A DNA stretch of 32,000 bases, taken from the NCBI GenBank assembly GCA_044447965.1, contig JBIOGJ010000020.1, positions 15,538 through 47,537 on the forward strand, in the 5' to 3' direction. The stretch is from Thermoanaerobaculales bacterium. Its GTDB lineage: Bacteria; Acidobacteriota; Thermoanaerobaculia; Thermoanaerobaculales; Thermoanaerobaculaceae. Both the position numbers and the translations under genes were made by a program. Positions 8,586 through 23,166 of this stretch are shown piece after piece. The notes under the pieces are model-generated. The model worked only from the letters and a program-made list of their open reading frames with translations. It was not told the DNA's origin and searched no databases. Each line of letters begins with the position of its first letter. The stretch's first letter is position 1.

Positions 8586-8617
8586 GCCCGGATTCTACCC
8601 GCCGCCGCGCCGTTCCC

Positions 8618-9157
8618 TCAGCCGCCCCCAATCGAGTCGGCGGCCGTCACGAGGTAGCGCGTCGCGATCAGCTCGGCGGCGACCGCCACGGCGCGGCGTA
8701 CGGGATCCGACAGGCCGGGGGAGATCTCCTCAGGGAGCGGACCCGTTTGACAGCAGAGCACCCTCACCTCGATGCTCCCCTCATCGGCGAGCTCGCGGAG
8801 CAGGTTGCTGGTGGGGAGCTGGTGGAATGAGAAATCGTCTTGCTTGGTGGCGGGGAGCTCCATCGGATCGAGGTCGAACACCTCGCCCGGCGTGCGGCCC
8901 CGATCCACGGCGTCAACGATGAGGATACGTTCGGGCCGCACCGAAGAGAGCGACACCGTAAATAGGAGCGTGCGCACGCCGGTGCCCGCGTCGAGGAGGT
9001 ACACGTCGGCGGGGATCTCAAAGTGCTGCTCGAGGTAGTCGATGACCGCGCTGCCGAAACCGTCGTCCCCGAACAGGACGTTGCCGCAGCCGAGGATCAA
9101 CGTGCGGGCGCGACAGAACGCAGGCAACGCCTCCCTGCTCGCCTCCTCCACCGACAC
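8618..9157 (-). CDS. [NiFe]-hydrogenase maturation endopeptidase (HyaD/HycI/FrhD family)
   Basis: TLILGCGNVLFGDDGFGSAVIDYL...YLLDAGTG...ILIVDAVD is the family signature. I chose the GTG at 9157 (or 9151), downstream of the large-subunit stop and preceded by GGGAGG. The 5' part of the long track ORF overlaps mvhA out of frame. Confidence 0.85.
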   Translation of the reverse strand: MSVEEASREALPAFCRARTLILGCGNVLFGDDGFGSAVIDYLEQHFEIPADVYLLDAGTGVRTLLFTVSLSSVRPERILIVDAVDRGRTPGEVFDLDPMELPATKQDDFSFHQLPTSNLLRELADEGSIEVRVLCCQTGPLPEEISPGLSDPVRRAVAVAAELIATRYLVTAADSIGGG

Positions 9158-9198
9158 CTCCCGGCGATCGTCAGCCAAGTGTAATCGACTAGGCACGG

Positions 9199-10641
9199 CT
9201 AGTTCGCAAGCGAGTCGATGAGCCTCCCTTCGACGTCGAAGATGTCGAGCTTCACGGCAAACCTGCCGTCCAGCCGGTGCGTCGCGCAGGAGAAGCAGGG
9301 GTCGTAGGCGCGAATCGCCATCTCCACCCGGTTGAGGATGCCCTGATCGTAGGCGCCGCCCTTGATGACGCTCTTCGCGGCCTTGGTGACCGACATGTTG
9401 ATCGGCGCGTTGTTGTGGGTGGTGCCCACGATGAGGTTGACGTTGGTGAGCATGCCGTTGGAGTCGGTGGTGTAGTCGTGGATCAAGGTGCCGCGTGGGG
9501 CCTCCACGCATCCCACCCCGCGTGCGGCGCGCGGCGTCACCTTGACGCGCGTCTCGGGGCTGGTGATCTCCGGGTCGGCAAGCAGGCGCACGGCGTTCTC
9601 GGCGCTGTAAAGCAGCTCGATCAGGCGCGCCCAATGGTAAAGCAGGGTGAGCTGGGCGGGACGCCCGAACAGACGCCGGAACTCCTCGAGCTCGGCCTGC
9701 GCGAGCGGCGTGTCAATGTGATCGCACACGTTGATCCGGGCCAGGGTGTTAGTACGGTAGATCCCGCTCGGGTGATCGAGGTCCATCGAGAACGAACCCC
9801 ACTTCTTCGCGTAGGGGAACTTGAGGTAGGTCCAAGGCTCGACGTGTTCCGCGATGAAGTCCGTGTAGCGCTCGGCCGGAAACTCCTCGAACGTGCCGTC
9901 AGGCGCCATCAGGCGTAGGAGACCGTCGTAAGCGTTGAGGGCGCCGTCCTTGGTCACCGTGCCGAGGAACCCGGTGTTGATCACCCCCAACGACTTCACC
10001 ACATCGAGGTACTTGGGGAAGATGCTCTCCTTCGCGAAGGCGATGGTGAACTTCGCGAGTTCGAGCGCCTCGGCCGCCACCGGTTGGAGTTGGTCGCGCT
10101 CCTCGCCGCTCAGAGGCTTGGAGAATCCGCCCGGCACGGCGGCCTGCGGGTGGATCGGCTTGCCCGCGAGAACCTCGAGCATCTTGGCGCAGGCGTGACG
10201 GACCCGCACCACGCGCCTGGCGAGCTCGGGGGCCGCCTGGACGATGCCGAGGACGTTGCGCACCCCGTAGTCCGCGTCCGGCCCGAGGACGAAGTCGGCG
10301 CCGGCGAGAAAGTAGAAGTGGAGGATGTGCTCCTCCATGTACGCAATGCTGTTGCACAGCTCGCGCAGCTTGCGCCCGGCCGGCGGCGGAGTGACGCCGA
10401 AGACCGCATCGCACGCCTTGGCCGCAGCGAGGTGGTGCGACCACGGGCACACGCCGCAGATGCGAGGCGTGATGCGTGGCATGTCCTCGACCGGGCGGCC
10501 GATGCAGAAGCGCTCGAAACCGCGCAGTTCGATGACGTTAACGCGCGCGGTATCGACATCACCGGCGTCGTTGAGTTGGATGGTGACTTTCGCGTGTCCC
10601 TCAATGCGGGTGACGGGTTGAATGACGAGCGTCTTAGCCAT
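9199..10641 (-). CDS. mvhA: [NiFe] hydrogenase large subunit, group 3 (Mvh/F420-non-reducing type by context)
   Basis: The N-terminal Ni-binding motif is RICGVCPWSHH and the C-terminal motif is DPCFSCATH. A ~25 aa tail follows, which the endopeptidase would be expected to remove. The N-terminus MAKTLVIQPVTRIEGH is typical. Confidence 0.93.
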   Translation of the reverse strand: MAKTLVIQPVTRIEGHAKVTIQLNDAGDVDTARVNVIELRGFERFCIGRPVEDMPRITPRICGVCPWSHHLAAAKACDAVFGVTPPPAGRKLRELCNSIAYMEEHILHFYFLAGADFVLGPDADYGVRNVLGIVQAAPELARRVVRVRHACAKMLEVLAGKPIHPQAAVPGGFSKPLSGEERDQLQPVAAEALELAKFTIAFAKESIFPKYLDVVKSLGVINTGFLGTVTKDGALNAYDGLLRLMAPDGTFEEFPAERYTDFIAEHVEPWTYLKFPYAKKWGSFSMDLDHPSGIYRTNTLARINVCDHIDTPLAQAELEEFRRLFGRPAQLTLLYHWARLIELLYSAENAVRLLADPEITSPETRVKVTPRAARGVGCVEAPRGTLIHDYTTDSNGMLTNVNLIVGTTHNNAPINMSVTKAAKSVIKGGAYDQGILNRVEMAIRAYDPCFSCATHRLDGRFAVKLDIFDVEGRLIDSLAN

Positions 10642-10644
10642 GGC

Positions 10645-11568
10645 TCACCTCCTCGGAGCGGGCCGCAGGCGCCCGGCGCCGCAGAAACGGTTGAAGGTCG
10701 GGGCTCGGTCGGAAATCTCCTTGGGGTCGAGACCGATCGTGGAGAGTGCCCCCATCATGTCGACCATCGGGTTGGCGGTCTCGGAGAGCGGCCCGAAGCA
10801 CCCCTCGCACGGCATGTAGGCCCGGATGCACCGGGGCGTGCCTTGCCCGCCGCCGCACCCCGAGCGCGTGGCCGGTCCGAGGCAGAGGAAGCCCTGCTCC
10901 ATCAGGCAACGCATCTCCGACAGCGGGCGGCCCGGGGTGAAGTCAGGCCCTTCCAGGCGGCGCTTGAGCGTCGACGCGGCCTTCTTCTCCCGGATAGTCG
11001 GACACTCGTCGCACACGCTCTTGGTCGGCAGCTCGATCGGCTTGCCTTCCAGCAGCGCCATGAGCGCACCCGCCACCATCTCGGGAGTGGTGGGACAGCC
11101 GGGCAGCTTGAGGTCTACCGGCACGACATCGCTCACCGGGTAGACGCGATCGGTCAGGTGTGGGATGTCCGTGGAGGGAATGCCGTCGTTATCGGTCGAG
11201 ACGCTGCCGTGGTAGACCTTCTCGAGCAGCTCGCCGGTTGCGTACAGATTGGCGAGCGCAGGGATGCCCCCAGAGCACGCACACGACCCCATCGCAATCA
11301 GGATCTTGCACTTCCGGCGCATCTCCTCGGCCAGCTTCCGGTTCTCCTCGTTGCGGATGCCGCCGGTGACGATGCCTATGTCGGCTTCCGGGACCTCCAT
11401 CTCGGTACCCTCTCCGGTCTGGCCGTAGAGCTTGTGGTCCATCAGCACCGGCATGTGCACGATATCGACCTGCTTGAGCACCTCAAGCAGCGGCTCGCCA
11501 ATGTCGAGGATCGTGACCTCGCATCCACCGCAGATGGCGAACCATTCCTCAGCAAGTCTTACCCCCAT
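10645..11568 (-). CDS. mvhG: [NiFe] hydrogenase small subunit, group 3 (no Tat signal)
   Basis: Motifs seen: FAICGGCEVTILD, IAMGSCACSGGIPA, LPGCPTTPE, and a Cys-rich C-terminus (CDECP...CLGPATRSGCGG...CEGCFGP). A strong RBS (AAAGGAGGTG) lies upstream. Confidence 0.9.
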   Translation of the reverse strand: MGVRLAEEWFAICGGCEVTILDIGEPLLEVLKQVDIVHMPVLMDHKLYGQTGEGTEMEVPEADIGIVTGGIRNEENRKLAEEMRRKCKILIAMGSCACSGGIPALANLYATGELLEKVYHGSVSTDNDGIPSTDIPHLTDRVYPVSDVVPVDLKLPGCPTTPEMVAGALMALLEGKPIELPTKSVCDECPTIREKKAASTLKRRLEGPDFTPGRPLSEMRCLMEQGFLCLGPATRSGCGGGQGTPRCIRAYMPCEGCFGPLSETANPMVDMMGALSTIGLDPKEISDRAPTFNRFCGAGRLRPAPRR

Positions 11569-11649
11569 ACCACACCTCCTTTCCCGGCCTTGCGGCCGTC
11601 GCGTCGCGGTTTGGTGTCCTCCCGGCCCTGCCTCATATCCGCGTCCTCC

Positions 11650-12072
11650 TCACGTCCGGTATGGGCTGGGGCCGAGCTTCCTCAACTGCTCGGTCATCTC
11701 GGTGATCACCTGGGCGAAGCGCGGCCCCTCCGAGGCCGACACCCACTCCAGGCGAAAGCGCTCCGGCTCCAAGCCGAAGTCCTCCAGCATCAAAGTGATG
11801 GCATCCGCGCGAGACTTCGCACGCAGGTTTCCCTCGAGGTAATGGCAGTCCCCAGGGTGGCAGCCGCAAATGAGGACACCGTCCGCGCCCCCGGTGAGTG
11901 CGTCCACCACGAGGTTCGGGTGCACCATCCCGCTGCACTGCACCCGGATGATGCGCAGGTTGGACGGGTACTGCAGGCGTGACGTCCCCGCCAGGTCGGC
12001 TCCCGCGTACGAGCACCAGTAGCAGCAGAAGGCGATGAGAACGGGCTCATGCGGCTGGCTCATCGCGCTCAT
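11650..12072 (-). CDS. mvhD: Methyl-viologen-reducing hydrogenase delta subunit (MvhD/FlpD family, [2Fe-2S])
   Basis: VLIAFCCYWCSYAGADLAG...IIRVQCSGMV...GADGVLICGCHPGDCHY is the MvhD signature. I chose the ATG at 12072, 7 nt after the upstream stop. Confidence 0.9.
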   Translation of the reverse strand: MSAMSQPHEPVLIAFCCYWCSYAGADLAGTSRLQYPSNLRIIRVQCSGMVHPNLVVDALTGGADGVLICGCHPGDCHYLEGNLRAKSRADAITLMLEDFGLEPERFRLEWVSASEGPRFAQVITEMTEQLRKLGPSPYRT

Positions 12073-12079
12073 CGCCGCC

Positions 12080-15000
12080 TCACGCCGTCCCCTGCAGCGC
12101 CGTCTTGACCATGGCGGAGAGTTGCTCGGGGCGGAAATGCCACACGAAAATCGCCTTCTTCGGGCAGGTGGCCTGGCACGTGCCGCACCCCTTGCACACC
12201 GCATCGTCGACCCGCACGCGTTTCTTGGTCTGGCCGTTGGCCGTGTACTCGACGAGCGTGATGGCGTGGAACGGACAGGGGTCGACGCAGTAGGCGCAGC
12301 CGTCGCAGTTCTCCTCGACCACGTGCGAGTGGGTCGCTTCGAGATCGATGTGGTCCTTGGAGAGGATCGCGGCGGCCCGCGCCGACGCGGCGGCGGCCTG
12401 CACGATCGTCTCCTCGATCGACTTCGCCGAATGGGCGAGCCCGGCGACGTAAACGCCGTCGGTGGCGAAATCCACCGGGCGCAGCTTCAGGTGGGCTTCG
12501 AGGAAGAAGCCGTCCTGGTTGAGCGGGACCTTGAGGAGCTGCGCGGTTGCCTTGTTCTCCTCGTAGGGGACCGTCCCCGCCGAGAGCACGACCAGGCCCG
12601 CGTCGATGGCAAGATCCTGCTTGAGCTGCGGGTCGTGGACCGTGACGACGAGGCCGCCCTCGCCACGGGTCACGACCGGCTTGGCGTCGTCCTCGTGACG
12701 CAGGAAGACGACCCCTTGCGCTCGCGCCTTGGTGTAGAAGCTCTCCCGGAACCCGTAGGTGCGGATGTCCCGGTAGAGCACGTAGACGCTGGTGCGCCCA
12801 GAGAGCTGCTTGATCCTCAGGGCGTTCTTGACCGCCTCGGCGCAGCAGACGCGCGAGCAGTAGGGATGCTCCGCATCGCGGGAGCCGACGCACTGGATCA
12901 TGACCACCGAGGACGGCAGCCATCCGCCTCCACGCGTGACGAGGCGTTCCTCCAGCTCGAGTTGGGTCACGACCCGGTCGTCCTCGCCGTAGAGGTGCTC
13001 CTTGGGCTTGTACTCGCGGGCTCCGGTGGCGACGACGACGACGCCGTGCTCGACTCGCTCGACAGCCCCATCGTAGGCGATCGTGGTCGTGAAACTACCC
13101 ACCGACCCCTCCACCTTCTCGACGGAGGCCCCGGTGAATACCCTGATGCTCGCGCTCCCGCGCACCCGGTCGATGAGGCGGCGCAGGGCCGCCTGTGGAT
13201 CGTCGCCGTTGAAGAGATAGCGGATGCGGGTGAGGTTGCCGCCGAGCTGCGCCTCTTTCTCGACGAGTGAGACGTCGAAGCCCTGGTCGGCAAAATCGAG
13301 CGCCGAGGTCATGCCGGCGAGGCCGCCGCCGATCACGAGCGCGGACCTCCTGACCGGGGCCTCCCCGCCTTGCAGCGGCTCGAGCAGCCGCGCCTTGGCG
13401 AGCGCCATGCGAACCAGGTCCTTCGCCTTGCGCGTCGCCCGCTCGGGCTCAGAGGAGTGCACCCAGGAGCACTGGTCACGGATGTTCGCCATCTCGAACA
13501 GGTAGGGGTTGAGGCCGGCCTCGCGGCAGGTGTTGCGGAAGAGCGGCTCGTGCGTGCGCGGCGAGCAGGAGGCCACCACCACCCGGTTCAAGCCGTGCTC
13601 GCGGATTTTCCCCTTGATCCGCTCCTGCGTGTCGGTCGAGCAGGTGTACAGATTCGTCTCAGCGTGGACGACGTTGGGCAGGCTGCGCGCATACTCCGCG
13701 ACGCTCGCCACGTCCACGACGCCGGCGATGTTGGTGCCGCAGTGACAGACGAAGACCCCCACCCGCGGCCCCTGTCCCGTCACGTCCAGCTCCGGCGGGT
13801 AGACGCTCGGCGTGACGAGAGTGCCGCGGACGTCGCGTAGCAGGTTGAGGACTTTGGAGGCCGCCCCGGACGCCTGCATCACGGTCTCCGGGATGTCCTT
13901 GGGCTCGGTGAACGGGCCGCAGGCGAAGATGCCGTCGCGCGAGGACTCGACCGGCTCGAAGGTCGAGGTCTTGCAGAAGCCGAACTCGTTCAGCGCGATC
14001 CCGAATGTGCTCGCGATGTCCTGCACGTTACGGGGCGGCAACAGGCCGGTGGACAGGACGACGAGGTCGTACTCCCGCTCGGTCTTTGTGTCGTCCTCGG
14101 TCAGGTACTTGATGACGACGCTCCCCGCCGTGGCGCCCGCCTCGATGATCGGCGGTCGGCACCGGATGTATCGCACCCCTTGGGCGAGCGCTCGCTGGTA
14201 GTACGCCTCGAACCCCTTGCCGAAAGCACGGGCGTCCATGAAGAAGATGTCGGTTTCGAGCGCGCTGCCGCTGTGCTCCTTCGCAATCAGGGCCTCCTTG
14301 GTGGCGTACATGCAGCAGACCGAGGAGCACCAGTCGCGCTCGGCGTCACGCGAGCCCACGCACTGGATGAAGGCGATCCTCGTGGGCGGCTTGTGATCCG
14401 AAGGCCGGACGACGTGGCCGGAGAACGGCCCGGAAGCGGAGAGGATCCGTTCGAACTCGGCCGCGGTGATGACGTTGGGAAGCCGGCCGTAGCCGAGGTC
14501 TGGCTTGAGGCGGGCGTCGAAGAGGTCGTAGCCCGGCGCGAGGACGATCGCCCCCACCTGCAGCTCGACGGTTCGATCCACGTCGTCGAACTTGATCGCC
14601 TTGACGCCGCAGACCTGTTCGCATACGCCGCAGACGCCGTGCTGGAGGTGGACGCAGGTCGCCGGGTCGATGGCCGGACGGCTCGGCACCATCTGCGGAT
14701 ACATGATCGAGATCGCGGGCCGGTTGCTGAGTCCGCGGTTGAACTCAGACGCAATCGGGATGGGCGCGGCGGCGCTCATGGCGGGGGAGACCAGCCGCTC
14801 GGTCGGGCAGACGAAGTCGCAGGCGCGACACGTCCAGCACGCCTCGTTGTGCTTGCCGTAGGGCGGTTCGACCCGGCGCCGCGGACCGCGGCCCGAGAAG
14901 CCGACCGCGGCGCGCCCCATTCGCTCCTCGCACATTCGCACGCACAGCCCGCAGTCGATGCAGTCGTCGTCCTTCTTCGCGATGCGCGTGTCGGTCACGC

Positions 15001-15331
15001 CGAGCGACGCTGCCACCTGGCGGACCGCCGGGGCCTCGGGGCAACGGGCGAGGAGAAGCTCGGCGACGATCCGGCGCGCGCTTGCGATCCGCGGCGTGTC
15101 GGTCCTCACGACCAACCCCTCGAGCGCGGGGGACTGGCACGACGCCTGGACCGAGGTAGCCCTGCCCGGGACGTCGACCTCGACAAGACACAGGCGACAG
15201 GCGCCGTACGGCAAGAGCGCCTTGTGGTGGCAGAGGGTGGGGACCTTGATCCCGAGGCCCTCGGCCGCCTCGAGCAGCGAGGTCCCCTCGGGGACCTGAA
15301 CCGCCTGGCCGTTGATGGTCAGCGCGATCAC
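12080..15331 (-). CDS. hdrA: Multidomain flavo-FeS protein (1083 aa): NuoG/HydA-type N-terminal [2Fe-2S]+2x[4Fe-4S] module, then the C-terminal three-quarters of an HdrA, then a second complete HdrA-like unit
   Basis: - aa 1-185: LTINGQ...CHHKALLPYGACRLC (2Fe-2S), CIDCGLCVRMC, CWTCRACDFVCP.
- aa ~190-515: CVHLQHGVCGVCEQVCGVKAI, VGAIVLAPGYD, NVITAAEFERIL, IAFIQCVGSRD..CSSVCCMYATKEA, IFACGP.
- aa ~520-1083: VGVFVCHCGTNIAG...NPYLFEMANIRDQCSWVH, ALVIGGGLAGMTSALDFA, MIQCVGSRD..CSRVCC, and a C-terminal CDGCAYCVDPCP / CKGCGTCQATCP.
- The GTG start at 15331 overlaps the upstream stop (GTGA). Confidence 0.88.
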   Translation of the reverse strand: MIALTINGQAVQVPEGTSLLEAAEGLGIKVPTLCHHKALLPYGACRLCLVEVDVPGRATSVQASCQSPALEGLVVRTDTPRIASARRIVAELLLARCPEAPAVRQVAASLGVTDTRIAKKDDDCIDCGLCVRMCEERMGRAAVGFSGRGPRRRVEPPYGKHNEACWTCRACDFVCPTERLVSPAMSAAAPIPIASEFNRGLSNRPAISIMYPQMVPSRPAIDPATCVHLQHGVCGVCEQVCGVKAIKFDDVDRTVELQVGAIVLAPGYDLFDARLKPDLGYGRLPNVITAAEFERILSASGPFSGHVVRPSDHKPPTRIAFIQCVGSRDAERDWCSSVCCMYATKEALIAKEHSGSALETDIFFMDARAFGKGFEAYYQRALAQGVRYIRCRPPIIEAGATAGSVVIKYLTEDDTKTEREYDLVVLSTGLLPPRNVQDIASTFGIALNEFGFCKTSTFEPVESSRDGIFACGPFTEPKDIPETVMQASGAASKVLNLLRDVRGTLVTPSVYPPELDVTGQGPRVGVFVCHCGTNIAGVVDVASVAEYARSLPNVVHAETNLYTCSTDTQERIKGKIREHGLNRVVVASCSPRTHEPLFRNTCREAGLNPYLFEMANIRDQCSWVHSSEPERATRKAKDLVRMALAKARLLEPLQGGEAPVRRSALVIGGGLAGMTSALDFADQGFDVSLVEKEAQLGGNLTRIRYLFNGDDPQAALRRLIDRVRGSASIRVFTGASVEKVEGSVGSFTTTIAYDGAVERVEHGVVVVATGAREYKPKEHLYGEDDRVVTQLELEERLVTRGGGWLPSSVVMIQCVGSRDAEHPYCSRVCCAEAVKNALRIKQLSGRTSVYVLYRDIRTYGFRESFYTKARAQGVVFLRHEDDAKPVVTRGEGGLVVTVHDPQLKQDLAIDAGLVVLSAGTVPYEENKATAQLLKVPLNQDGFFLEAHLKLRPVDFATDGVYVAGLAHSAKSIEETIVQAAAASARAAAILSKDHIDLEATHSHVVEENCDGCAYCVDPCPFHAITLVEYTANGQTKKRVRVDDAVCKGCGTCQATCPKKAIFVWHFRPEQLSAMVKTALQGTA

Positions 15332-17271
15332 GACGGCCTCTGCGCGCGCGCCTCTTCAGCGCGTCGCGCTCGCCACTCCGCTACGGGCACCGGCTCGGGC
15401 AGCGTGACCAGCTCCTCGGCTTCCCGGCCCGAGACCTTGCGCACGGCCGCGACCTTGGGCGGGCAGACCTCCAGGCACTGGCCGCACTTGGTGCACTTGG
15501 CCTGGTCGACCACATGCACGTGCTTGGCCGATCCCCGGATCGCCTCGCTCGTGCAGGCCTTCAGGCAGAGCTGACAGCCGGGACAGAGGTCCGGGTCGAT
15601 CGTGTACTTGACGAGGCTCTTGCACGCGAGCGCCGGACAGCGCCGCTCGCGGATGTGGGCCTCGTACTCGTCGCGGAAGTAGCGCAGCGTCGAGAGAACC
15701 GGGTTGGGCAGCGTCTGGCCCAATCCGCACATCGAGGCGTCCTTCACGGCCGCCCCCAGCTCTTCGAGGAACTCGATGTCGCCCTCTCGCCCGGCGCCGC
15801 CGGTGATCCGCGTCAGCACCTCGAGCAGCGCCGCGCTCCCTTCGCGGCACGACGAGCACTTCCCGCACGACTCGTCGTTGGTGAACTGGAGGAAGTACTT
15901 GGCGATGTCCACCACGCAGGTGTCTTCATCGAGCACGATCATCCCGCCGGAGCCCATGATCGAGCCCGCCTGCTGCAGGCTCTCGTAGTCGATCGGCAGG
16001 TCCACCAAGCTGGCCGGGATGCACCCGCCGGACGGCCCGCCGGTCTGGATCGCCTTGAGTTTTCTGCCCTGCGGGATGCCACCGCCGATGTCGTACACGA
16101 TCTCGCGCAGCGTGAGGCCCATCGGGACCTCGATCAGCCCGGTGTTGGTGATCTTGCCGACCAGGGAGAAGATCTTCGTCCCCTTGCCGGTGGCGGTGCC
16201 GACGCGCGCATACGCCTCGGCCCCGCGCACGATGATGACCGGCACGTTCGCGAGCGTCTCGACGTTGTTGATGACGGTGGGCTGGCCCCAGAGGCCCGAC
16301 TGCACCGGGAACGGGGGCCGCTGGCGCGGTTCCGGGATCGCTCCCTCGATCGAGCGCAGCAGTGACGTCTCCTCGCCGCATACGAAGGCGCCCGAACCCT
16401 CGCGGATCTCGATCTCGAAGGCGAAGCTCGAGCCGAGGATGCCCGGCCCAAGCAGGCCGTTCGCGCGGGCCTGCTCGATCGCTGTCCCCAGCCGGCGGAG
16501 CGCGAGCGGGTACTCGGAGCGGACGTAGACGTACCCCTTGGCGGCGCCGATCGCGTACGCCGCGATCGTCATGCCCTCGACCACCGCGTGCGGATCGGAC
16601 TCGAGCAGGCTGCGATCCATGTACGCGCCGGGGTCGCCCTCGTCGCAGTTGCCGACGATGTATCGGGGCGTCCGCGCCTCGGCTGCGCAGGCCTTCCACT
16701 TCCGGCCGGTCGGGAAACCGGCGCCGCCACGCCCGCGGAGGCCTGCGGCGGTAATCTCCTCAACGACGTCCGAAGGCGTCATCCCGACGACGACCTTCTC
16801 GAGCGCCGCATATCCGCCGCGCCCGATGTAGTCCTCGATCCTCTCTGGGTTGATCTGGCCCGCGTTGCGAAGAACGACGGGCGTCTGCTTCCGGAAGAAC
16901 GGGATCTCGGTGTCGAGCACGTGCTGCTGTGCGACACGACCGTCGCGGACGTGCTCGGCGAAGACCTCTGCCGCCTTGGCCCCGTCGAGGTGCGCGTAGA
17001 GCACCGGAGAGACGCCGCGGATCTCGACGGTGCTGGTCGGCTCGGCGGAGCAGAGCCCGGCGCAGCCGGTGGTCACGATCTGCACGTCCGTGCGCCCGCT
17101 CTTCGCGAGCTCGGCGCAGAAGGCGTCATGCACGGACTTCGCCCCGGCCGCCAGACCGCAGGTGCCCATGTGCACGACGACCCGCGCCCGGTAGCTCGTG
17201 CCCTCGAGGCTGAGGCCCTTCCTCGCGTCCTCGCGCAGCCTGCCGAGCGCTTGCACAGTGAGCTGGGGCAC
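15328..17271 (-). CDS. nuoF: NuoF/HoxF/HydB-like NAD(H)-binding FMN subunit, with an N-terminal thioredoxin-like [2Fe-2S] domain and a C-terminal 2x[4Fe-4S] ferredoxin domain
   Basis: Motifs seen: GLRGRGGAGFPTGRKW (FMN), NCDEGDPGAYMDR, SGAFVCGEETSLL, ESCGKCSSCREG...MCGLG (N3 cluster), CPGCQLCLKACT / CTKCGQCLEVCP, and an N-terminal VVVHMGTCGLAAG...GCAGLC. I chose the GTG at 17271, 1 nt after the upstream stop with GAGGCGG upstream. The track ORF's ATG at 17373 would overlap the upstream gene by ~100 nt. Confidence 0.9.
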   Translation of the reverse strand: MPQLTVQALGRLREDARKGLSLEGTSYRARVVVHMGTCGLAAGAKSVHDAFCAELAKSGRTDVQIVTTGCAGLCSAEPTSTVEIRGVSPVLYAHLDGAKAAEVFAEHVRDGRVAQQHVLDTEIPFFRKQTPVVLRNAGQINPERIEDYIGRGGYAALEKVVVGMTPSDVVEEITAAGLRGRGGAGFPTGRKWKACAAEARTPRYIVGNCDEGDPGAYMDRSLLESDPHAVVEGMTIAAYAIGAAKGYVYVRSEYPLALRRLGTAIEQARANGLLGPGILGSSFAFEIEIREGSGAFVCGEETSLLRSIEGAIPEPRQRPPFPVQSGLWGQPTVINNVETLANVPVIIVRGAEAYARVGTATGKGTKIFSLVGKITNTGLIEVPMGLTLREIVYDIGGGIPQGRKLKAIQTGGPSGGCIPASLVDLPIDYESLQQAGSIMGSGGMIVLDEDTCVVDIAKYFLQFTNDESCGKCSSCREGSAALLEVLTRITGGAGREGDIEFLEELGAAVKDASMCGLGQTLPNPVLSTLRYFRDEYEAHIRERRCPALACKSLVKYTIDPDLCPGCQLCLKACTSEAIRGSAKHVHVVDQAKCTKCGQCLEVCPPKVAAVRKVSGREAEELVTLPEPVPVAEWRARRAEEARAQRPS

Positions 17272-17272
17272 G

Positions 17273-18172
17273 TCAGGCCGCCTCACTCTTGCGGTACCGG
17301 TCGACGATCTTCGGGATGTCCTTGGCCGCAAGTTTCCCGTAGACCTCGCTCCCGATCGCCACCGCCGGGGCAAGGCCGCAGCAACCGATGCAGCGCACCG
17401 CCTTGAGGGTGAAGAGCCGGTCGCGAGTGGTCTCGTCCACGCCGATCTCGAGGACGTCCATGAACTTCTCCATCAGCCGCTCGGAGCCCCGCACGTAGCA
17501 CGTCGTCCCCATGCAGACGCTGATTGTGTGTTTGCCGCGTGGCGTGAGGCTGAAGGCACCGTAGAACGTCGCGACGCGGTAAAGGTGGGTGAGCGGGACG
17601 CCGGTCTCCTGTGACACGAAACGCAGGACGTCCTCCGGGAAATAGTTGAAGCGGGCGTTGATCTCCTGGAGGATCGGCATGAACGGACCCTCTCGCCCCT
17701 TCCAGCGCGCCAGGATTGCCTCGACTTCTTGCCGGGCTTCGGGTGCGAGGTCGACGGGCGCGCGCTGCTCCGCGGGGATCGGCTGCACGCGGTAGCGTAC
17801 GGGGCAACTCGCCACACAGCTCCCGCAGCCGGTGCATTTGTCCTCGTCGATGTAGCGGGCTCGCTTCTTGACCGTGACGCTGAAGTTCCCCGGGCCCCCT
17901 TCGATGTGCTCCACCTCCGCGAGGGTGAGCAGCTCGATGTCCTTGTGCCGGCTCAGGTCCGCGAGTCGCGGGGCCATTGTGCACATGGCACAGTCGTTGG
18001 TCGGGAAGGTCTTGTCGAGCTGCGCCATCACCCCGCCGACGCCAGCCTTCTGCTCGACCAGGAACACCTTGATCCCCGCGGCAGCGAGGTCGAGCGCCGC
18101 TTGCATGCCGCCGATCCCCCCGCCGACGACGAGCGCCGCCCCGACCTTCTGCGCGCGGGCGACGTCACTCAT
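17273..18172 (-). CDS. Fusion protein: HdrA N-terminal FAD-binding fragment (aa 1-~125) joined to a NuoE/HoxE-type thioredoxin-like [2Fe-2S] domain (aa ~140-299)
   Basis: The HdrA part reads ALVVGGGIGGMQAALDLAAAGIKVFLVE, MAQLDKTFPTNDCAMC, GNFSVTVKKRARYIDEDKCTGCGSCVASCP. The NuoE part reads PILQEINARFNYFPEDVLRFVSQETGVPLTHLYRVATFY, SVCMGTTCYVRG, VRCIGCCGLAPA. The ATG at 18172 overlaps the upstream stop (ATGA). Confidence 0.88.
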   Translation of the reverse strand: MSDVARAQKVGAALVVGGGIGGMQAALDLAAAGIKVFLVEQKAGVGGVMAQLDKTFPTNDCAMCTMAPRLADLSRHKDIELLTLAEVEHIEGGPGNFSVTVKKRARYIDEDKCTGCGSCVASCPVRYRVQPIPAEQRAPVDLAPEARQEVEAILARWKGREGPFMPILQEINARFNYFPEDVLRFVSQETGVPLTHLYRVATFYGAFSLTPRGKHTISVCMGTTCYVRGSERLMEKFMDVLEIGVDETTRDRLFTLKAVRCIGCCGLAPAVAIGSEVYGKLAAKDIPKIVDRYRKSEAA

Positions 18173-19491
18173 GCGCGCACGGGCGCGAGGCCCGCCTCCA
18201 TTGGTACTTCCTCTCTCGCCCTCTCACGGACTGCCTGGAAGTACAGGGCAAGAGGCCGATCGATCATGTGCGCCCACTCGCCGAACGGCACCTCCACCAC
18301 GACCATCGGCACGAGGATGACGAGGTGGGCGGCGTAGGCGTAGTGAGCGGTCAGCGCCATCCCGAGCAGCCGGAGGACGTGAATCGCGATCCCGCTCACA
18401 GCCGTGAGCCACAGCAGCAGTGGAAGCGTGACCGGTCCTTCCTTCCGCGCGGTCCCGTGCCGCCGGCGGATGCGCCGGAGGATCACGTCGGTCGTGCCCC
18501 AGAGGATGAACGCGGTGGCCAAGTAGCCCAGCCACCTCTGTGGGTGATACAGGGGGTAGATCTTGTCGGTCTGGAACCGGCCCAGGAACGCCACGGTCAG
18601 GACGAACATGAGCACCGTGCCGAGCGCCATCAGCCAGTGTTTGAGCCACCGCCGCGGGACCGCCTCGGCGCTCCCCGCGTAGAGCCACCAGCCGACCACC
18701 GGCGCGCCGCGCGCCTCCGACGGGCACTTCCGCAACTGGCGGTGGGTAAGCATGTGAACCATCAGCGTCCGGGCTTCGGCGAGGAGGTGGCGCGGCGCCG
18801 GTCGTGTCCGGCCCATGGTGAGCCGATACATCCGCCAGACATGGGTGACGAGGACGATCGCCGGCAGCGCGTAGACGAGCCACGTGAAGTAAAGGATCTT
18901 CGGGAACATGTGGCCGATGCCCATGGGGGTCGCGACGAAGTCCGGAACTGACAGCCCCACCCAACGGAGGTGGTATGCGACCACCAGTGCGAGCACGACA
19001 GCCCCCACTGCCAGGAGCGACCCTAAGTGCCACGCCCGGGAGCGGAGGATTCTGGCGGATAGCCCGGTCCAGTCGTACTCCCCTGTCAGGTAGCGACGCA
19101 GCGTCCGCATCGACGCCGCCGGGTCCGCCTGGCGCGGGCATTTGAGGGAGCAGTCCCCACAATCGTGACACAGCCACGGCTCCAGGCCCGCGACGACGGC
19201 CTCGCGGAGTCCGAGGACGACGTGGCGGATGGGCTTGCGCGGGAACGTCACATCGCCGAGCGCCAACTCGCAGGCGACCGAGCAGCCGCCACAGTTGAGG
19301 CAGCTCGTGTCGAACTTCCCCAGGCGTTGAACCTCGCTGAGCAGAGAGGAGTCGACCCGCAACGGGGACCGCGCTGCAACGCCCGCCTCCAGGCGTGCGG
19401 ACGCCATCACCTGACACGAGGCGGCGTCTAGCGGCGCAGTCACGGCCCCGCGCTGGTCGCTCGACGTACCCGCAGCGTCGTCCCGCCCCAT
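18169..19491 (-). CDS. QmoC-like membrane subunit: HdrC-type 2x[4Fe-4S] domain fused to a NarI/HdrE/DsrM-like (putative di-heme b) transmembrane domain
   Basis: The N-terminal soluble part has CLNCGGCSVACE ... CHDCGDCSLKCP. About 6 hydrophobic helices follow, with conserved-looking His residues and a C-terminal VPFGEWAHM motif (the NarI-family PFxxxxH type). The start is uncertain: GTG 19554, ATG 19491 or ATG 19407. Confidence 0.75.
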   Translation of the reverse strand: MGRDDAAGTSSDQRGAVTAPLDAASCQVMASARLEAGVAARSPLRVDSSLLSEVQRLGKFDTSCLNCGGCSVACELALGDVTFPRKPIRHVVLGLREAVVAGLEPWLCHDCGDCSLKCPRQADPAASMRTLRRYLTGEYDWTGLSARILRSRAWHLGSLLAVGAVVLALVVAYHLRWVGLSVPDFVATPMGIGHMFPKILYFTWLVYALPAIVLVTHVWRMYRLTMGRTRPAPRHLLAEARTLMVHMLTHRQLRKCPSEARGAPVVGWWLYAGSAEAVPRRWLKHWLMALGTVLMFVLTVAFLGRFQTDKIYPLYHPQRWLGYLATAFILWGTTDVILRRIRRRHGTARKEGPVTLPLLLWLTAVSGIAIHVLRLLGMALTAHYAYAAHLVILVPMVVVEVPFGEWAHMIDRPLALYFQAVRERAREEVPMEAGLAPVRA

Positions 19492-19627
19492 TGCGGCGTC
19501 CCCCCAGCCACCCCGGCGGTTGGCATCCGGCCGATCCCTCCCGATACCCACCACACACAGGAAAGACCGAACAAAACGCCTGATCGAAACCTGAGACTAC
19601 TCCCCCCCGACAGGTGACCCAGTTATC

Positions 19628-19656
19628 AGAATCAACCTGCGGTACGGCGTTGTCAA
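19628..19656 (-). promoter_or_regulatory. Weak candidate sigma70-type promoter for the hydrogenase operon
   Basis: The minus strand has TTGACA (19656-19651), a 17 nt spacer, then GATTCT. It lies in the lowest-GC intergenic stretch of the window (19555-19737). The -10 element is poor. Confidence 0.25.
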
Positions 19657-20054: not shown

Positions 20055-20756
20055 TCAGACGCCGAGCACGATCACGATCAGCCCCGAGCCGGCGATCACC
20101 GCCCCCGCGAGCGCGTGCGACCAGCGCTCGAACGCCGCGAGGGGGAGCCGCTTCACGCCGGAGAGCGCGAGGGAGACCAACGTCAGCATGGTCGCGATCG
20201 TGATCACCGAGAAGACCACGGCGGTGAGCGCGGCGGTCTCCCAGCGCCCACGGCTTGCCGGCAACACGAACAGCGGTATCAGCGGCTCGCACGGTCCCAG
20301 CACGAAGATCGTAAAGAGTGCCCAGAACGTCGTGCGGGAGCGGTCGACTCCCGCGTGCTCGTGGCGTTGCTCGCCTTGCGTGTGGAGATGGACATGCCCA
20401 TGATGGACGTGCGGCACGAGTCCGGTCCGCTGCCGCACCGCGTGGCGCACGCCCCAGACGGCGTACGCGAGGCCGAATGCCACGAGTGCCCAGGCGGCGA
20501 GGCCGCCGCGAGCGTTCTCGGCAGCGGTGAGGTGGGCAACTCCGAATCCAAGCGCCAATCCGACGACACCGAGCACAACCGACGAACCGACGTGCCCCAG
20601 GCCGCACAGGAACGTCACCACCAAGGTCCGCCGCTGGCTCCACCCTCGTGCCTGGGCGAGCATCACGAACGGCAGGGTGTGATCCGGCCCCAGCACGGTA
20701 TGCGTCAGCGCGATCGCCGCCGCCGCGATGAGGAGGTCGAGCGAAAAGGCGTCCAT
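20055..20756 (-). CDS. Putative nickel/cobalt transporter (HupE/UreJ- or NicO/UreH-like membrane protein) with a His-rich loop
   Basis: There are 6-7 hydrophobic helices. The first helix has the motif ALTHTVLGPDHTLPFVML (the H-x4-G-x-DH type seen in HupE/UreJ-like Ni permeases). The central loop is PHVHHGHVHLHTQGEQRHEH and there is a GPCEPLIP motif. The ATG at 20756 overlaps the hypE stop (TGATG). Confidence 0.7.
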   Translation of the reverse strand: MDAFSLDLLIAAAAIALTHTVLGPDHTLPFVMLAQARGWSQRRTLVVTFLCGLGHVGSSVVLGVVGLALGFGVAHLTAAENARGGLAAWALVAFGLAYAVWGVRHAVRQRTGLVPHVHHGHVHLHTQGEQRHEHAGVDRSRTTFWALFTIFVLGPCEPLIPLFVLPASRGRWETAALTAVVFSVITIATMLTLVSLALSGVKRLPLAAFERWSHALAGAVIAGSGLIVIVLGV

Positions 20757-21832
20757 CAGCAGATCCGCGGCAGCTCGGCGCCAGCCAGGAGATCGAGCGG
20801 CCGCTCGGTGCCGTACGGTGTGCGCAGCGCCACCGGCCCGGCATGCGGCGAACGCGCCTCGACCCGGCCGATCCGCGCGGCCCCGTTGCCCAACGTATGC
20901 GCGGCAAGCGCCGCGAGCGCCCGCTCGCCGTCGTGCTCTGCCACCCACACGAGCGCCCGTCCCTCGCACGCGACGTAGAGCGGATCGAGGCCCAACAGCT
21001 CGCACACCGCCCGCACCTGCGGCCGGACCGGGATCGCCGCGCCTTCGAGCACGATGCGGCTCCCCGATCTCGACGCCACCTCGTGGCAGGTGGTGGCGAC
21101 GCCACCGCGAGTGGGATCGTGGAGCGCGTGCACGTCGGCGCCGGAGGCGAGCAGCGCATTCACCAACGAGGCGAGCGGCGCGCAATCGGAGGCGAGCCCT
21201 TCTCCGCCGATCTGGTGCCGGCATGCCATCACGGTCGCGCCATGGTCGCCGATCGGACCGGAGACGAGTACCGCGTCGCCCGCCGTGACACGGTGATCGC
21301 CAAGGTCGCGGCCGGGCGGCACCACGCCCAGACCCGAGGTGACCACGTACGCGCGGTCGCCCTTGCCGCGCGGCACCACCTTGGTGTCTCCGGCGACGAT
21401 CGCCACGCCCGCCTCTTTCGCCGCGCGCGCGGCGCCGCGCACGAAGGTGCGCAGCAGCTCGACCTCGAGACCCTCCTCGAGCACCAGCGCCCAGGTGAGC
21501 GCATGCGGCACCGCCCCTGCCACCGCGAGATCGTTGACGGTGCCACACACCGAGAGGTAGCCAAGGTCACCGCCGGGGAACACCGGCGGGTCCACGACAA
21601 ACGCATCGGTGGTGAGCGCCACCCGGCCCGGCGGCAGCGGTTCGAGGACGGCGGAGTCGGACAGCGTCGCGAGAGCCGGGTTGGCCAGGGCGGGCAGGAA
21701 CAGCTCTCGCACCAGCTCCTGGGTCAGGCGCCCGCCGCCGCCATGGGCGAGCAGGATCCGCTCGACCGCCGCACTCCCTTGCGGCTCCGCGTCTGTGGCC
21801 TCTGATCTACCCGCGGTGCGCTTCGCCATCAC
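20756..21832 (-). CDS. hypE: Hydrogenase maturation protein HypE (carbamoyl dehydratase)
   Basis: Motifs seen: LLAHGGGG, DAFVVDPPVFPGGDLG, CGTVNDLAVAGA, and the diagnostic C-terminal PRIC. Confidence 0.93.
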   Translation of the reverse strand: MMAKRTAGRSEATDAEPQGSAAVERILLAHGGGGRLTQELVRELFLPALANPALATLSDSAVLEPLPPGRVALTTDAFVVDPPVFPGGDLGYLSVCGTVNDLAVAGAVPHALTWALVLEEGLEVELLRTFVRGAARAAKEAGVAIVAGDTKVVPRGKGDRAYVVTSGLGVVPPGRDLGDHRVTAGDAVLVSGPIGDHGATVMACRHQIGGEGLASDCAPLASLVNALLASGADVHALHDPTRGGVATTCHEVASRSGSRIVLEGAAIPVRPQVRAVCELLGLDPLYVACEGRALVWVAEHDGERALAALAAHTLGNGAARIGRVEARSPHAGPVALRTPYGTERPLDLLAGAELPRIC

Positions 21833-21844
21833 CCACCTCTCGCC

Positions 21845-22942
21845 CTAGGCCTGCACCCGCTCGTGGCGATACCAGGCGGCGCAGGTCCCCTCGCTCGATA
21901 CCATGCACGCCCCAATCGCCGTGGACGGCGTGCAGATGGTCGCGAAAAGCGGACATTCAGGCGGATCGATGCTGCCCTTGAGAACCTCGCCGCAGCGGCA
22001 ACCCTCAGGCTCCACCGGCTCCGGCACGTCCACCTCGATGCGCGACGCGTCGCGGCGGGCGAACTCGGGCCGCAGCGCAAGCCCCGATCCTGGGATCGCA
22101 CCGAGCCCACGCCACACCACGTCTGCCGGAGTGAAGAAGCGATCCACGAGCGCACGTGCGGTCGTGTTGCCCTCCGCTGTCACCACCCGCGTGTAGAGGT
22201 TGACGACCTCGGTCCGACCGTGTGCGAGCCGATCAACCAGCGCCTCGACACCGCGCAGCACATCGGTGGGGGTGAAGCCGACGACGGCCGCCGGCAGGCC
22301 GAACTCCTCGGCAACGAAGGCGAAGGCGTTCGCGCCGGTGATTACCGAGACGTGGCCAGGAAGCAAGAAACCGTCCACCTTGACCTCGGGGTCGCGGGCG
22401 AGCGCACGCATCGGCGGCGGCATGATCTTGTGCCCGGAGAGGACGTGGAAGTTCGTGACTCCATCGGCCTCGGCTTCGGCCAACGCCGCAGCCACGGTAG
22501 GCACCGTGGTCTCGAAGCCAACCCCGAGGAAGACCACGGCTTGGTCAGGGTTTTCCCGCGCGAGCTGCAACGCATCCCGCGGCGAATAGACGATGTGCAC
22601 TGCGCCGCCCTCGGCCCGCACCCGCTCGAGACTGCCCTTCGACGACGGCACCCGCACGAGGTCGCCGAACGTCGCCACGATCGTTCCCGGCCGGCGCGCG
22701 AGCGCCTCGGCGCGGTCCACGTACCCCACCGGCGTAACGCACACCGGACAACCGGGACCCGCGATCAGGCGCACCGTGGGCGGCAACAGCCGGCGCAGCC
22801 CCGCGGCGGCAATCGCGTGGGTGTGCGTGCCGCAAACCTCCATCAGAGTGACCCGTCGCGTCAACCCCTCGGCCGCACCCACGATACGGGCCACCAGCCC
22901 CTTGACCGCATGGGGATCGACAAGGGCCGCCGCAATGCTCAT
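21845..22942 (-). CDS. hypD: Hydrogenase maturation protein HypD
   Basis: Motifs seen: MEVCGTHTH, GPGCPVCVTP, GFETT, PGHVS, and a C-terminal Cys cluster (CRCGEVLKG...CPLF...C). Confidence 0.93.
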   Translation of the reverse strand: MSIAAALVDPHAVKGLVARIVGAAEGLTRRVTLMEVCGTHTHAIAAAGLRRLLPPTVRLIAGPGCPVCVTPVGYVDRAEALARRPGTIVATFGDLVRVPSSKGSLERVRAEGGAVHIVYSPRDALQLARENPDQAVVFLGVGFETTVPTVAAALAEAEADGVTNFHVLSGHKIMPPPMRALARDPEVKVDGFLLPGHVSVITGANAFAFVAEEFGLPAAVVGFTPTDVLRGVEALVDRLAHGRTEVVNLYTRVVTAEGNTTARALVDRFFTPADVVWRGLGAIPGSGLALRPEFARRDASRIEVDVPEPVEPEGCRCGEVLKGSIDPPECPLFATICTPSTAIGACMVSSEGTCAAWYRHERVQA

Positions 22943-23166
22943 GCGTCGCCGCCCGCCGCGGCCACCTGACGCAACAGCTCCAGGGTCACCTGCGCCTCGG
23001 CTTCGTCAACCACACCAATGGCGTAGCCGGCGTGGACGAGGAGATACTCGCCCAGCTTCGCCTCCGGGTGCAGCAGCAGGGAGACTTCCCGCCGCACGCC
23101 GTCCAGTTCGGCCACGCCCAACGCCTCATCGCGCTCCACCAACTTCATCGGCACCGCCAGGCACAT
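22939..23166 (-). CDS. hypC: Hydrogenase maturation chaperone HypC (75 aa)
   Basis: The N-terminus is the canonical MCLAVPMKLV. The ATG at 23166 overlaps the hypF stop and the gene's own stop overlaps the hypD ATG (ATGA). The longer track ORF (to 23343) lies inside hypF. Confidence 0.9.
   Translation of the reverse strand: MCLAVPMKLVERDEALGVAELDGVRREVSLLLHPEAKLGEYLLVHAGYAIGVVDEAEAQVTLELLRQVAAAGGDA

Follow-up and report, generated by a model that had tools for sequence, protein, structure and literature searches.

A split double HdrA combined with QmoC-like, NuoEF-type and Mvh-like [NiFe]-hydrogenase modules in a Thermoanaerobaculales operon: a possible bifurcating hydrogenase linked to quinone and pyridine nucleotide

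In metagenome surveys, bacterial group 3c-like hydrogenases are routinely counted as 'heterodisulfide-linked, bifurcating', yet their carriers have no CoM-S-S-CoB. One of the questions that this raises is which partners such enzymes really have. In this paper we looked at a stretch of 32,000 nucleotides (nt), here called the window, from an uncultured Thermoanaerobaculales bacterium of the Acidobacteriota (assembly GCA_044447965.1, contig JBIOGJ010000020.1, positions 15,538 to 47,537), which carries an operon of eight genes, g1 to g8, for a QmoC-like membrane subunit, a split double HdrA, a NuoEF-type module and an Mvh-like [NiFe]-hydrogenase. A first-pass annotation of this DNA had claimed that three modules (Mvh/HdrA, NuoEF-type and QmoC-like) are merged here, and all three are present: their flavin adenine dinucleotide (FAD), flavin mononucleotide (FMN) and Fe-S ligand motifs are intact, they are coupled by fusions and they are conserved together across phyla. 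That the eight genes encode one complex is, in our view, very probable. The specific reaction that we propose for it, a bifurcation of electrons from H2 to quinone and to nicotinamide adenine dinucleotide (phosphate), NAD(P)+, with or without ferredoxin (Fd), is modelled on known enzymes, and we give it about an even chance of being right. The analysis suggests that menaquinone (MK) and NAD(P)+ are the real partners in Acidobacteriota and several other phyla.

The eight genes all lie on the minus strand, from 19407 to 8618 of the window, whose G+C content is ~68% and whose genes were called from a listing of open reading frames (ORFs) together with codon-position G+C. They encode, in order, the QmoC-like subunit (g1, 19407..18169, 412 amino acids (aa)), the front of an HdrA followed by NuoE (g2, 18172..17273, 299 aa), a NuoF/HydB of the Bfu type (g3, 17271..15328, 647 aa), a NuoG(N)/BfuA-like module followed by two HdrA-like units (g4, 15331..12080, 1083 aa), MvhD/VhuD (g5, 12072..11650, 140 aa), the small subunit (g6, 11568..10645, 307 aa) and the large subunit (g7, 10641..9199, 480 aa) of the [NiFe]-hydrogenase and a maturation endopeptidase (g8, about 9151..8618, 177 aa). 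The maximal ORF of g1 reaches 19554; the alignment of its homologues favours the ATG at 19407. Neighbouring genes overlap by 4 nt or are separated by gaps of 81 nt or less: -4 nt between g1 and g2 (ATGA), +1 between g2 and g3, -4 between g3 and g4 (GTGA), +7 between g4 and g5, +81 between g5 and g6, +3 between g6 and g7 and +47 between g7 and g8. These coordinates and junctions agree with the co-directional array that the first-pass annotation had described, and all the domains that it had named were found in Pfam and NCBIfam scans.

How are the HdrA parts of g2 and g4 related to each other? They had been described as two fusions; the domains are indeed present, but the fusions are not independent, since g2 residues 1-126 and g4 residues ~163-1080 are halves of one double-HdrA gene, found contiguous as a single ~1000-aa gene in 35 of 85 related loci. 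The loci were obtained by searching the GTDB species, each represented by one genome, with a profile of g4, which gave 80 loci (later 85), and all window proteins were then compared with these loci by tblastn; they are numbered L001 to L085 where they have to be told apart. Those with a contiguous double HdrA include Elusimicrobia, Bathyarchaeia, Thermoplasmata, Asgard archaea and Methanoperedens.

The front of HdrA unit 1 occupies residues 1-126 of g2 (17795..18172) and contains a GGGIGG FAD motif, the motif DKTFPTNDCAMC with the 'Cys197' ligand and the first CxxCxxCxxxCP. Pfam detects an FAD Rossmann fold and Fer4 at residues 12-126, residues 11-126 align to HdrA 145-259 in the PDB and to positions 141-257 of the NCBIfam HdrA2 model, and the HdrA motifs of g2 are invariant in 21 homologues. 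The remainder of unit 1 is found in g4 (residues 185-515, 13787..14779), with the second Cys motif of the inserted-ferredoxin domain (C226/234/237/241), the FAD domain and a CVGSRD...CSSVCC cluster site (C324/335/339/340); its residues 185-446 align to HdrA 252-511 (PDB) and to positions 251-562 of the HdrA2 model. Unit 1 has neither an N-terminal cluster domain nor a C-terminal ferredoxin domain. Unit 2 (g4 residues 516-1083, 12083..13786) has the N-terminal cluster, an FAD domain with a GGGLAG motif, a CVGSRD...CSRVCC site (C814/825/829/830) and the C-terminal 2x[4Fe-4S] domain, and its residues 521-751 and 932-1080 align to HdrA 3-234 and 507-651 (PDB), respectively. It is without the Cys197 motif (NDCSIC is replaced by NGDDPQ) and without the inserted-ferredoxin domain. 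Across both units the N-terminal cluster domain, Cys197, the inserted-ferredoxin domain and the C-terminal ferredoxin domain thus occur once each. Both FAD sites and both CVGSRD...CC sites, the N-terminal cluster and the two plus two ferredoxin clusters are invariant in 54 homologues; the HdrA-like parts keep their FAD and Fe-S ligands, a point on which the first-pass annotation had made its reading depend. Three independent HdrA copies were considered and rejected: the N-terminus of g2 is the missing front of unit 1, so there are two flavin units. Judged from the sequence, g2 (1-126) and g4 (185-1083) together amount to two HdrA units joined covalently into an asymmetric 'heterodimer', in which unit 1 alone is probably wired as the bifurcating centre. 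The same complementarity of Cys197 and N-terminal domain is known from fused and tandem HdrA of anaerobic methanotrophic (ANME) archaea and from MetFV-HdrABC-MvhD of Moorella, where it was read as a covalent heterodimer (PMC9012536).

The gene break falls within the inserted-ferredoxin domain, between the C113-C123 motif of g2 and the C226/234/237/241 motif of g4, and the gap is filled by NuoE (the rest of g2), NuoF (g3) and the NuoG(N)/BfuA-like module at the start of g4. Because both Cys motifs are invariant, this 2x[4Fe-4S] domain can be completed only by the association of g2 with g4, and its division over two polypeptides is the strongest sequence-level argument for one complex. An AlphaFold2 (AF2) model of g4 has an overall predicted local distance difference test score (pLDDT) of 75.8 and superposes on HdrA 5odc_A with a template-modelling score of 0.75 (Foldseek). 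Its HdrA domains are good, and the BfuA di-cluster region with half of the inserted-ferredoxin domain (residues 120-248) falls below pLDDT 50; such a poor model would fit a region in need of clusters and of a second polypeptide, and proves nothing. In their matches both units are closest to methanogen HdrA/HdrA2, and they matched no QmoA or QmoB model of NCBIfam at E<=1e-8.

The module that fills the break resembles the NAD(H)-handling part of bifurcating enzymes. In g2, residues 146-295 (17288..17737) form a thioredoxin-like [2Fe-2S] domain of the NuoE/HydC (BfuC) type, detected by Pfam 2Fe-2S_thioredx at residues 151-293 (E 7e-43), with invariant Cys220/225/261/265; for residues 148-294 the best PDB match is 7t2r_C, NiFe-HydC of the bifurcating enzyme of Acetomicrobium mobile. 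In the g3 product a core with the FMN/NADH site is flanked by a thioredoxin-like [2Fe-2S] domain on its N-terminal side and by a 2x[4Fe-4S] domain on its C-terminal side (Pfam Complex1_51K, SLBB, NADH_4Fe-4S and Fer4). Its residues ~30-605 match the B subunits of bifurcating enzymes in the PDB (8oh5_B, 7t2r_B, 7q4v_B, 9n5u_B and 9mqx_B, comprising StnB, NiFe-HydB, HydB, Bfu-type NfnB and WOR-Bfu) with 583-744 bits, and Thermus Nqo1 with 386 bits over the core only. The first 180 residues of g4 (14792..15331; Pfam Fer2_4 and Fer4_21) are a short BfuA/NuoG(N)/HoxU-like module with one [2Fe-2S] site (C34/45/48/65) and two [4Fe-4S] sites (C124-134 and C165-175), whose Cys are invariant in the 54 homologues; this part matches the BfuA subunit 9mqx_A with 125 bits (PDB) and at 40% identity (Foldseek). 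By these matches the NuoEF part of the operon is of the electron-bifurcating Bfu/HydBC type, and its NAD(H)/ferredoxin site is probably equivalent to that of the Bfu family. In the definition of Schut et al., Bfu modules work with both NAD(H) and ferredoxin (PMC9304861).

Where does such a module enter HdrA in other loci? In 19 of them the same linker between the two Cys motifs of unit 1 carries a ~500-aa GltD/NfnB-like insert (Fer4_20 and Pyr_redox_2), at a point ~35 residues downstream of the NuoEFG insertion point, and therefore the two insertions look independent. In the methanogen enzyme the inserted-ferredoxin branch of HdrA reduces ferredoxin; the recruitment of two different NAD(P)H modules to this one branch argues that here it ends in pyridine nucleotide. 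In several relatives, NuoF itself is C-terminally fused to a GltD/NfnB-like Fer4_20 and Pyr_redox_2 part, giving proteins of ~1020-1060 aa (L002 4188-7238; L081 6811-9954; L083 3477-6536; L085 848-4021). From its domains, this fusion appears to be a second pyridine-nucleotide site in those complexes, resembling the Nfn/Stn type.

The hydrogenase part of the operon resembles that of Mvh. The g5 product is an MvhD/VhuD [2Fe-2S] adaptor (Pfam FlpD, E 7e-54; NCBIfam VhuD, 135 bits), and in most of the 85 loci mvhD comes after the double-HdrA gene. The small subunit g6 is MvhG/VhuG-like (Pfam Oxidored_q6), with VhuG as its best NCBIfam match (247.9 bits). The large subunit g7 (Pfam NiFeSe_Hases) belongs to group 3 and is Mvh/Vhu-like, with 444.7 bits to the VhuA model of NCBIfam, whose cut-off is 800. 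It has the motifs RICGVCPWSH and DPCFSCATH, the latter followed by a tail of 25 residues, and in the PDB it scores 430 bits with MvhA 9sw2_F, 410 with NiFe-HydL 7t2r_D and 373 with HoxH 5xf9_D, which is the fifth-best match. The protease g8 is an endopeptidase of the HycI/FrhD type (Pfam HycI, E 5e-24; NCBIfam hydrog_prot and frhD). None of the window's major ORFs was found to encode a CCG-domain protein (HdrB), and an HdrC-like domain was found only as the N-terminus of g1.

In the predicted structure of g1, an N-terminal HdrC-like 2x[4Fe-4S] domain is followed by a C-terminal NarI/HdrE-like domain with six membrane helices (seen in the hydropathy profile and in the AF2 model), a putative dihaem cytochrome b. 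Pfam detects Fer4_8/17. Two CxxCxxCxxxC motifs (Cys 36/39/42/46 and 80/83/86/90) have all eight Cys invariant among 10-36 homologues; the same alignments show no variation at His166/257/361/380 and at least 90% conservation at His146/343/355. Half of the 36 family members examined (18/36) match the NarI family model Nitrate_red_gam of Pfam, the best with E 6.4e-7, and several homologues carry the Joint Genome Institute (JGI) label QmoC. We propose g1 as the quinone site of the complex.

The distribution of g1 is consistent with such a place. It is present in 13 of the 85 loci, across all three HdrA types, and the [NiFe] genes adjoin it in 11 of the 13, whichever NAD(P)H module is there; the exceptions are one truncated locus and one of Methanoperedens. 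The gene is kept in the operon across at least four phyla despite rearrangement: in the Aminicenantes locus (L083) it has been relocated between g4 and mvhD, still inside the operon. In L034 the position of g1, upstream of the g2 homologue, is held by a gene for a 453-aa HdrD/HdrB-like protein with two CCG domains (2537-3898), which fits g1 replacing HdrBC on the high-potential arm and suggests that such arms are interchangeable. In a metagenome-assembled genome (MAG) of Ca. Methanoperedens (L018, 8860-16090), a contiguous double HdrA and mvhD are immediately preceded by a g1-like gene (42% identity), no hydrogenase gene is found within 10 kb, and the pairing of a QmoC-like subunit with a double HdrA thus also exists without Mvh.

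The gene order and fusions were also sought elsewhere. A full set like that of the window recurs in Acidobacteriaceae (L001 and L002), Gemmatimonadota (L081), Eisenbacteria (L082) and a 2.4-Mb metagenome contig (L084), and the gene set is also carried by Aminicenantes (L083, rearranged) and other MAGs. Homologues of g4 number more than 7,500 at E<=1e-20, those of g2 ~5,000 at E<=1e-30 (the best 120 are all full-length HdrA(N)-NuoE fusions) and those of g1 ~3,400 at E<=1e-5, with 394 at E<=1e-10 among 50%-identity cluster representatives. The combination is widespread in soil and sediment bacteria and common in metagenomes. Some relatives contain further genes. Between nuoF and the g4 homologue, four loci have a regulatory cassette that is absent from the window, with genes for a CBS protein with a histidine-kinase-like ATPase, a PHP-domain protein and a DRTGG protein (L002 7603-9576; L034 7512-9527; L082 7202-10004; L083 6577-9332). 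A conserved ORF of 66-68 aa lies between mvhD and the small subunit (L081 13709-13915; L082 13705-13908; L083 14397-14600; L084 13689-13889), and one of 127 aa lies between g2 and g3 in L082, L083 and L084 (L084: 7740-8123); the window has neither. In L002, L009, L013 and L034 the DNA between g2 and g3 matches the N-terminal [2Fe-2S] region of g3.

How could electrons move through such a complex? By analogy with the solved MvhAGD-HdrABC structure, we propose a membrane-anchored, cytoplasm-facing [NiFe]-hydrogenase that would oxidise H2 and bifurcate the electrons at an HdrA-type FAD. The attachment of the hydrogenase via MvhD at the input site, as in MvhAGD-HdrABC, argues for H2 as the donor. 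Electrons would pass from the [NiFe] site through the MvhG clusters and the MvhD [2Fe-2S] cluster to the C-terminal ferredoxin domain of unit 2, then to the cluster of its N-terminal domain, completed by Cys61/64 of g2, and from there to the FAD of unit 1. On leaving this FAD, the high-potential electron would pass the CVGSRD...CC cluster, enter g1 and reach menaquinone by way of the g1 clusters and b haems, with g1 (an HdrC-like di-cluster domain plus a NarI/HdrE-like membrane domain) taking the place of HdrBC. The low-potential electron would take the split inserted-ferredoxin domain and the BfuA-like clusters to the FMN of NuoF, where NAD+ would be reduced, and perhaps ferredoxin too, as in other Bfu enzymes. 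The net reaction would be 2 H2 + MK + NAD+ -> MKH2 + NADH + H+. A quinone as high-potential acceptor of a bifurcating flavin has a precedent in EtfABCX/FixABCX (PMC9304861, PMC10734219).

In terms of energy, exergonic quinone reduction would pay for the reduction of NAD(P)+ and ferredoxin at low H2 partial pressure. The standard potentials are -414 mV for H2, -320 mV for NAD and -74 mV for MK; with these values, 2 H2 + MK + NAD+ is still exergonic down to sub-ppm H2, and the reverse, from quinol plus a low-potential donor to H2, is thermodynamically poor. A further option, which we put forward tentatively and consider rather doubtful, is that two different bifurcating centres work in series, the HdrA FAD (menaquinone/low-potential wire) and then the Bfu FMN/Fe-S centre (NAD+/ferredoxin). 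The ferredoxin domain split between two polypeptides would be their coupling point, and the sum would read 4 H2 + 2 MK + NAD+ + Fdox -> 2 MKH2 + NADH + Fdred.

Several observations weigh against this proposal. Most of them concern the membrane subunit: g1 aligns to positions 7-360 of the 360 of the NCBIfam qmoC model with 137.8 bits, below the cut-off of 300; the g1 of the window itself does not match the NarI model of Pfam; its AF2 model has a pLDDT of 59 and the top PDB fold match, NarI, is non-significant (E 0.6); and its putative haem binding and quinone specificity are read solely from conserved His. Hydrogenase-bearing relatives without g1 (L019-L021, L029 and L034) indicate that the family can do without a quinone link. 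The NuoF-GltD-like fusions of relatives leave the use of NAD or NADP either way. A promoter and terminator scan of 7800-20800 gave no promoters, and five terminator-like sites where 4.7 are expected.

Other explanations start from the same genes. One possible option is that the complex works in the opposite role, with NAD(P)H, alone or together with reduced ferredoxin, as the donor and H2 as the product. In one version quinone reduction would pay (2 NADH + MK + 2 H+ -> 2 NAD+ + MKH2 + H2), a route from NADH to H2 and MK that is feasible on standard potentials; in another the enzyme would be a HydABC-like hydrogenase confurcating NADH and Fd. Bfu-type NuoEF is reversible and drives H2 evolution in HydABC and NiFe-HydABCSL (PMC9304861), and g3, g2 and g7 are about equally similar to the A. 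mobile NiFe-HydABCSL subunits and to Mvh. Group 3 hydrogenases of peat Acidobacteria were likewise described as bidirectional and upregulated under anoxia (PMC6018796). However, in the window the NAD(P)H module is on the inserted-ferredoxin branch, an output, and the MvhD-linked input site is held by the hydrogenase, and an organism that reduces quinone has little need to shed electrons as H2; we regard this option as rather unlikely. Nor do we expect the enzyme to be of a soluble type that links H2 to NAD+ and ferredoxin by Bfu bifurcation only, with HdrA as a passive conduit or scaffold and g1 as a tether or an overflow or regulatory link. A Bfu core with a [NiFe] dimer is enough for bifurcation among H2, NAD and Fd in NiFe-HydABCSL (PMC9304861), and five loci (L019, L020, L021, L029 and L085) have the HdrA-Mvh core and an NAD(P)H module but no g1. 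The invariance of all HdrA cofactor motifs would be unexpected for a mere scaffold, though, and g1 is retained across phyla and, in L034, gives way to another module of the high-potential arm; we take this explanation to be unlikely.

The kinship of g1 raises the question of whether it draws electrons in. QmoC is its closest curated family, Qmo is thought to link menaquinol to adenosine 5'-phosphosulfate (APS) reductase (PMC3333476), and close homologues of g1 occur in large numbers in Ca. Sulfotelmatobacter and in further dsr-bearing Acidobacteria (PMC6018796). Quinol and H2 would then confurcate to NAD(P)+ or another cytoplasmic acceptor; but menaquinol (MKH2, -74 mV) and H2 (-414 mV) average ~-244 mV, which is too high for NAD+ (-320 mV) under standard conditions, the 32-kb window has no aprBA, dsr or other acceptor gene, and in solved Hdr structures the HdrC-like domain that g1 contains is on the output arm of HdrA. 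Such a Qmo-like role is improbable. That the genes are mere neighbours, encoding an Mvh hydrogenase and a module of an NADH dehydrogenase as separate enzymes next to a membrane Fe-S protein unrelated to them, is a view to which the uninformative promoter and terminator scan leaves some room. It has to account for translationally coupled junctions, for NuoE and NuoG(N) fused to HdrA halves that can be completed only in trans and for the conservation of the same set in Acidobacteriota, Gemmatimonadota, Eisenbacteria and Aminicenantes, and we consider it very improbable indeed.

If the proposed bifurcation from H2 to menaquinone and NAD(P)+ is correct, the view of how respiration and biosynthesis draw on H2 uptake in anoxic soils, peat and sediments would change. 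If, in addition, two bifurcating centres work in series, abundant soil and sediment bacteria (Acidobacteriota, Gemmatimonadota, Aminicenantes and others) could obtain quinol, NADH and reduced ferredoxin straight from H2 at low pressure, with no need of reverse electron transport. It would also add a quinone-dependent member to HdrA-type bifurcation, and a natural fusion of two bifurcating modules, HdrA and Bfu, in one enzyme. The loci with no insert, with an NfnB-like insert and with a NuoEFG insert can be read as a series of modular swaps made in nature.

Upstream of the operon, the first-pass annotation had placed a hypABFCDE cluster, and Pfam identifies all six genes, hypA-hypB-hypF-hypC-hypD-hypE, at 26666..20756 on the minus strand (HypA, cobW, HypF domains, HupF_HypC, HypD and AIRS/AIRS_C). 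The linkage of the hyp cluster to the operon is also found in L081, L082 and L084. Between hypE and g1 lies a gene for a membrane protein (20055..20750, minus strand) with an HTVLGPDH motif, which had been labelled a Ni transporter. This label could not be confirmed, since the protein has a weak Pfam match to DsbD_2 (E 2e-6) and zero NCBIfam matches; it is possibly a metal permease. On the other side, a gene for a class-I glutamine amidotransferase/peptidase C26 (7890-8585, minus strand) begins 32 nt past g8 on the same strand. It is not kept beside the operon in relatives, and its co-transcription with g8 is possible either way. At the left end of the window, a molybdopterin oxidoreductase gene (Molybdop_Fe4S4 and Molybdopterin; 2-2548, minus strand) is broken by an in-frame TGA at 1922-1924, in the context ARV-U-HGPTVAG, and an Rfam SECIS_3 match of 81 bits (1869-1927, minus strand) lies right at this TGA. 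The gene encodes a selenocysteine-containing, formate-dehydrogenase-like alpha subunit that extends past the left end of the window. A tRNA-Pro (GGG) gene (2747-2823, minus strand) is found between it and a MerR-family regulator gene (2924-3457), and an ORF of 491 aa on the plus strand (6399-7874) has coding-like codon G+C and matched zero Pfam families.

How does the predicted complex compare with its closest precedents, MvhAGD-HdrABC, QmoABC, NiFe-HydABCSL, Bam-Bfu and HdrL, and with other known systems? With MvhAGD-HdrABC (group 3c; PDB 5ODC and 9SW2) it shares an MvhA/G-like dimer, the MvhD adaptor, an HdrA with all cluster motifs and, probably, the input path from H2 to the HdrA FAD and the logic of bifurcation. 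In contrast to that enzyme, HdrB (CCG) and a free HdrC are both missing from the window, and the high-potential arm would be a membrane cytochrome like QmoC; HdrA is a fused asymmetric double unit and not a homodimer, and the inserted domain, divided over two genes, is tied directly to a NuoEFG-type module. QmoABC, too, contains a pair of HdrA-like flavin units and an element like MvhD, and the architecture of its QmoC (HdrC-like clusters with an HdrE/NarI-like membrane domain) is matched by the one predicted for g1. Yet g1 is not an equivalog of QmoC (137.8 bits against 300), the HdrA units are fused and split in another way than the separate QmoA and QmoB, MvhD is encoded by a separate gene whereas QmoB has a C-terminal MvhD-like domain, hydrogenase and NuoEF modules are present and aprBA is absent, and quinone reduction is proposed instead of quinol oxidation. 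A canonical Qmo was rejected on the absence of aprBA from the window and on the g1 score below the qmoC cut-off. In group 3d hydrogenases of the Hox type HoxEFU binds HoxYH directly, with no HdrA or MvhD, whereas MvhD and a double HdrA intervene in the window; the presence of these two, and a NuoF of the Bfu type with extra domains, led us to reject a Hox-type hydrogenase. EtfABCX/FixABCX splits electrons between menaquinone and a low-potential acceptor at a bifurcating flavin (PMC10734219, PMC9304861), but its proteins are unrelated and its donor is NADH, not H2.

A related architecture is that of HdrL of Desulfobacterium autotrophicum and HdrA9-11 of ANME-1, in which an NAD(P)H module interrupts the inserted-ferredoxin domain and mvhD follows (PMC2702500, PMC9012536). 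This architecture, with an NfnB-like insert, is that of the type B loci of our survey. Unlike it, the window has a three-gene NuoE/F/G(N) Bfu unit that splits hdrA ~35 residues upstream of the NfnB-type site, and also a hydrogenase and a QmoC-like subunit. In Desulfotignum, nuoEFG-mvhD-hdrA clusters that lack a hydrogenase have been noted (PMC4046663); these correspond to our type A loci of Desulfobacterales. The Moorella MetFV-HdrABC-MvhD complex is alike in its fused double HdrA with complementary Cys197 and N-terminal domain (PMC9012536). The NiFe-HydABCSL/Bfu family (A. mobile 7T2R; HydABC, StnABC, NfnABC and WOR-Bfu 9MQX) has full-length homologues of the BfuB, BfuC and short BfuA found here. 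In known members, however, BfuA connects directly to the module for the third substrate, whereas in the window the HdrA flavoprotein is interposed: it separates the Bfu core from the hydrogenase and is fused with BfuA(N) and BfuC, and a putatively quinone-linked subunit is added.

For the set of QmoC-like subunit, split HdrA, Bfu and Mvh together we found no description or purification in the full-text literature, with a mention possible in Appel et al. 2021 (a review of the HdrA module) or Pereira et al. 2011; the first-pass annotation had likewise been aware of no characterised enzyme with this subunit set. The work on peat Acidobacteria mentions only 'group 3 hydrogenases' (PMC6018796). The only characterised complex that we found to combine an HdrA-type module, an MvhD-like subunit and NuoEFG-like BfuABC is Bam-Bfu, the class II benzoyl-CoA reductase BamBCDEFGHI of Geobacter and Desulfosarcina (PMC9304861). 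The window contains no gene of the aldehyde oxidoreductase (AOR) family, and a Bam relative was rejected for this reason: the catalytic module of Bam-Bfu is a tungsten AOR (BamBC) in place of a [NiFe]-hydrogenase, and its membrane or high-potential link is also a different one. For Bam-Bfu, too, a quinone-pool outlet is presumed and a bifurcation in two steps was proposed (PMC9304861), but there the proposed flow runs from Bfu to HdrA, in the opposite order to that of our model.

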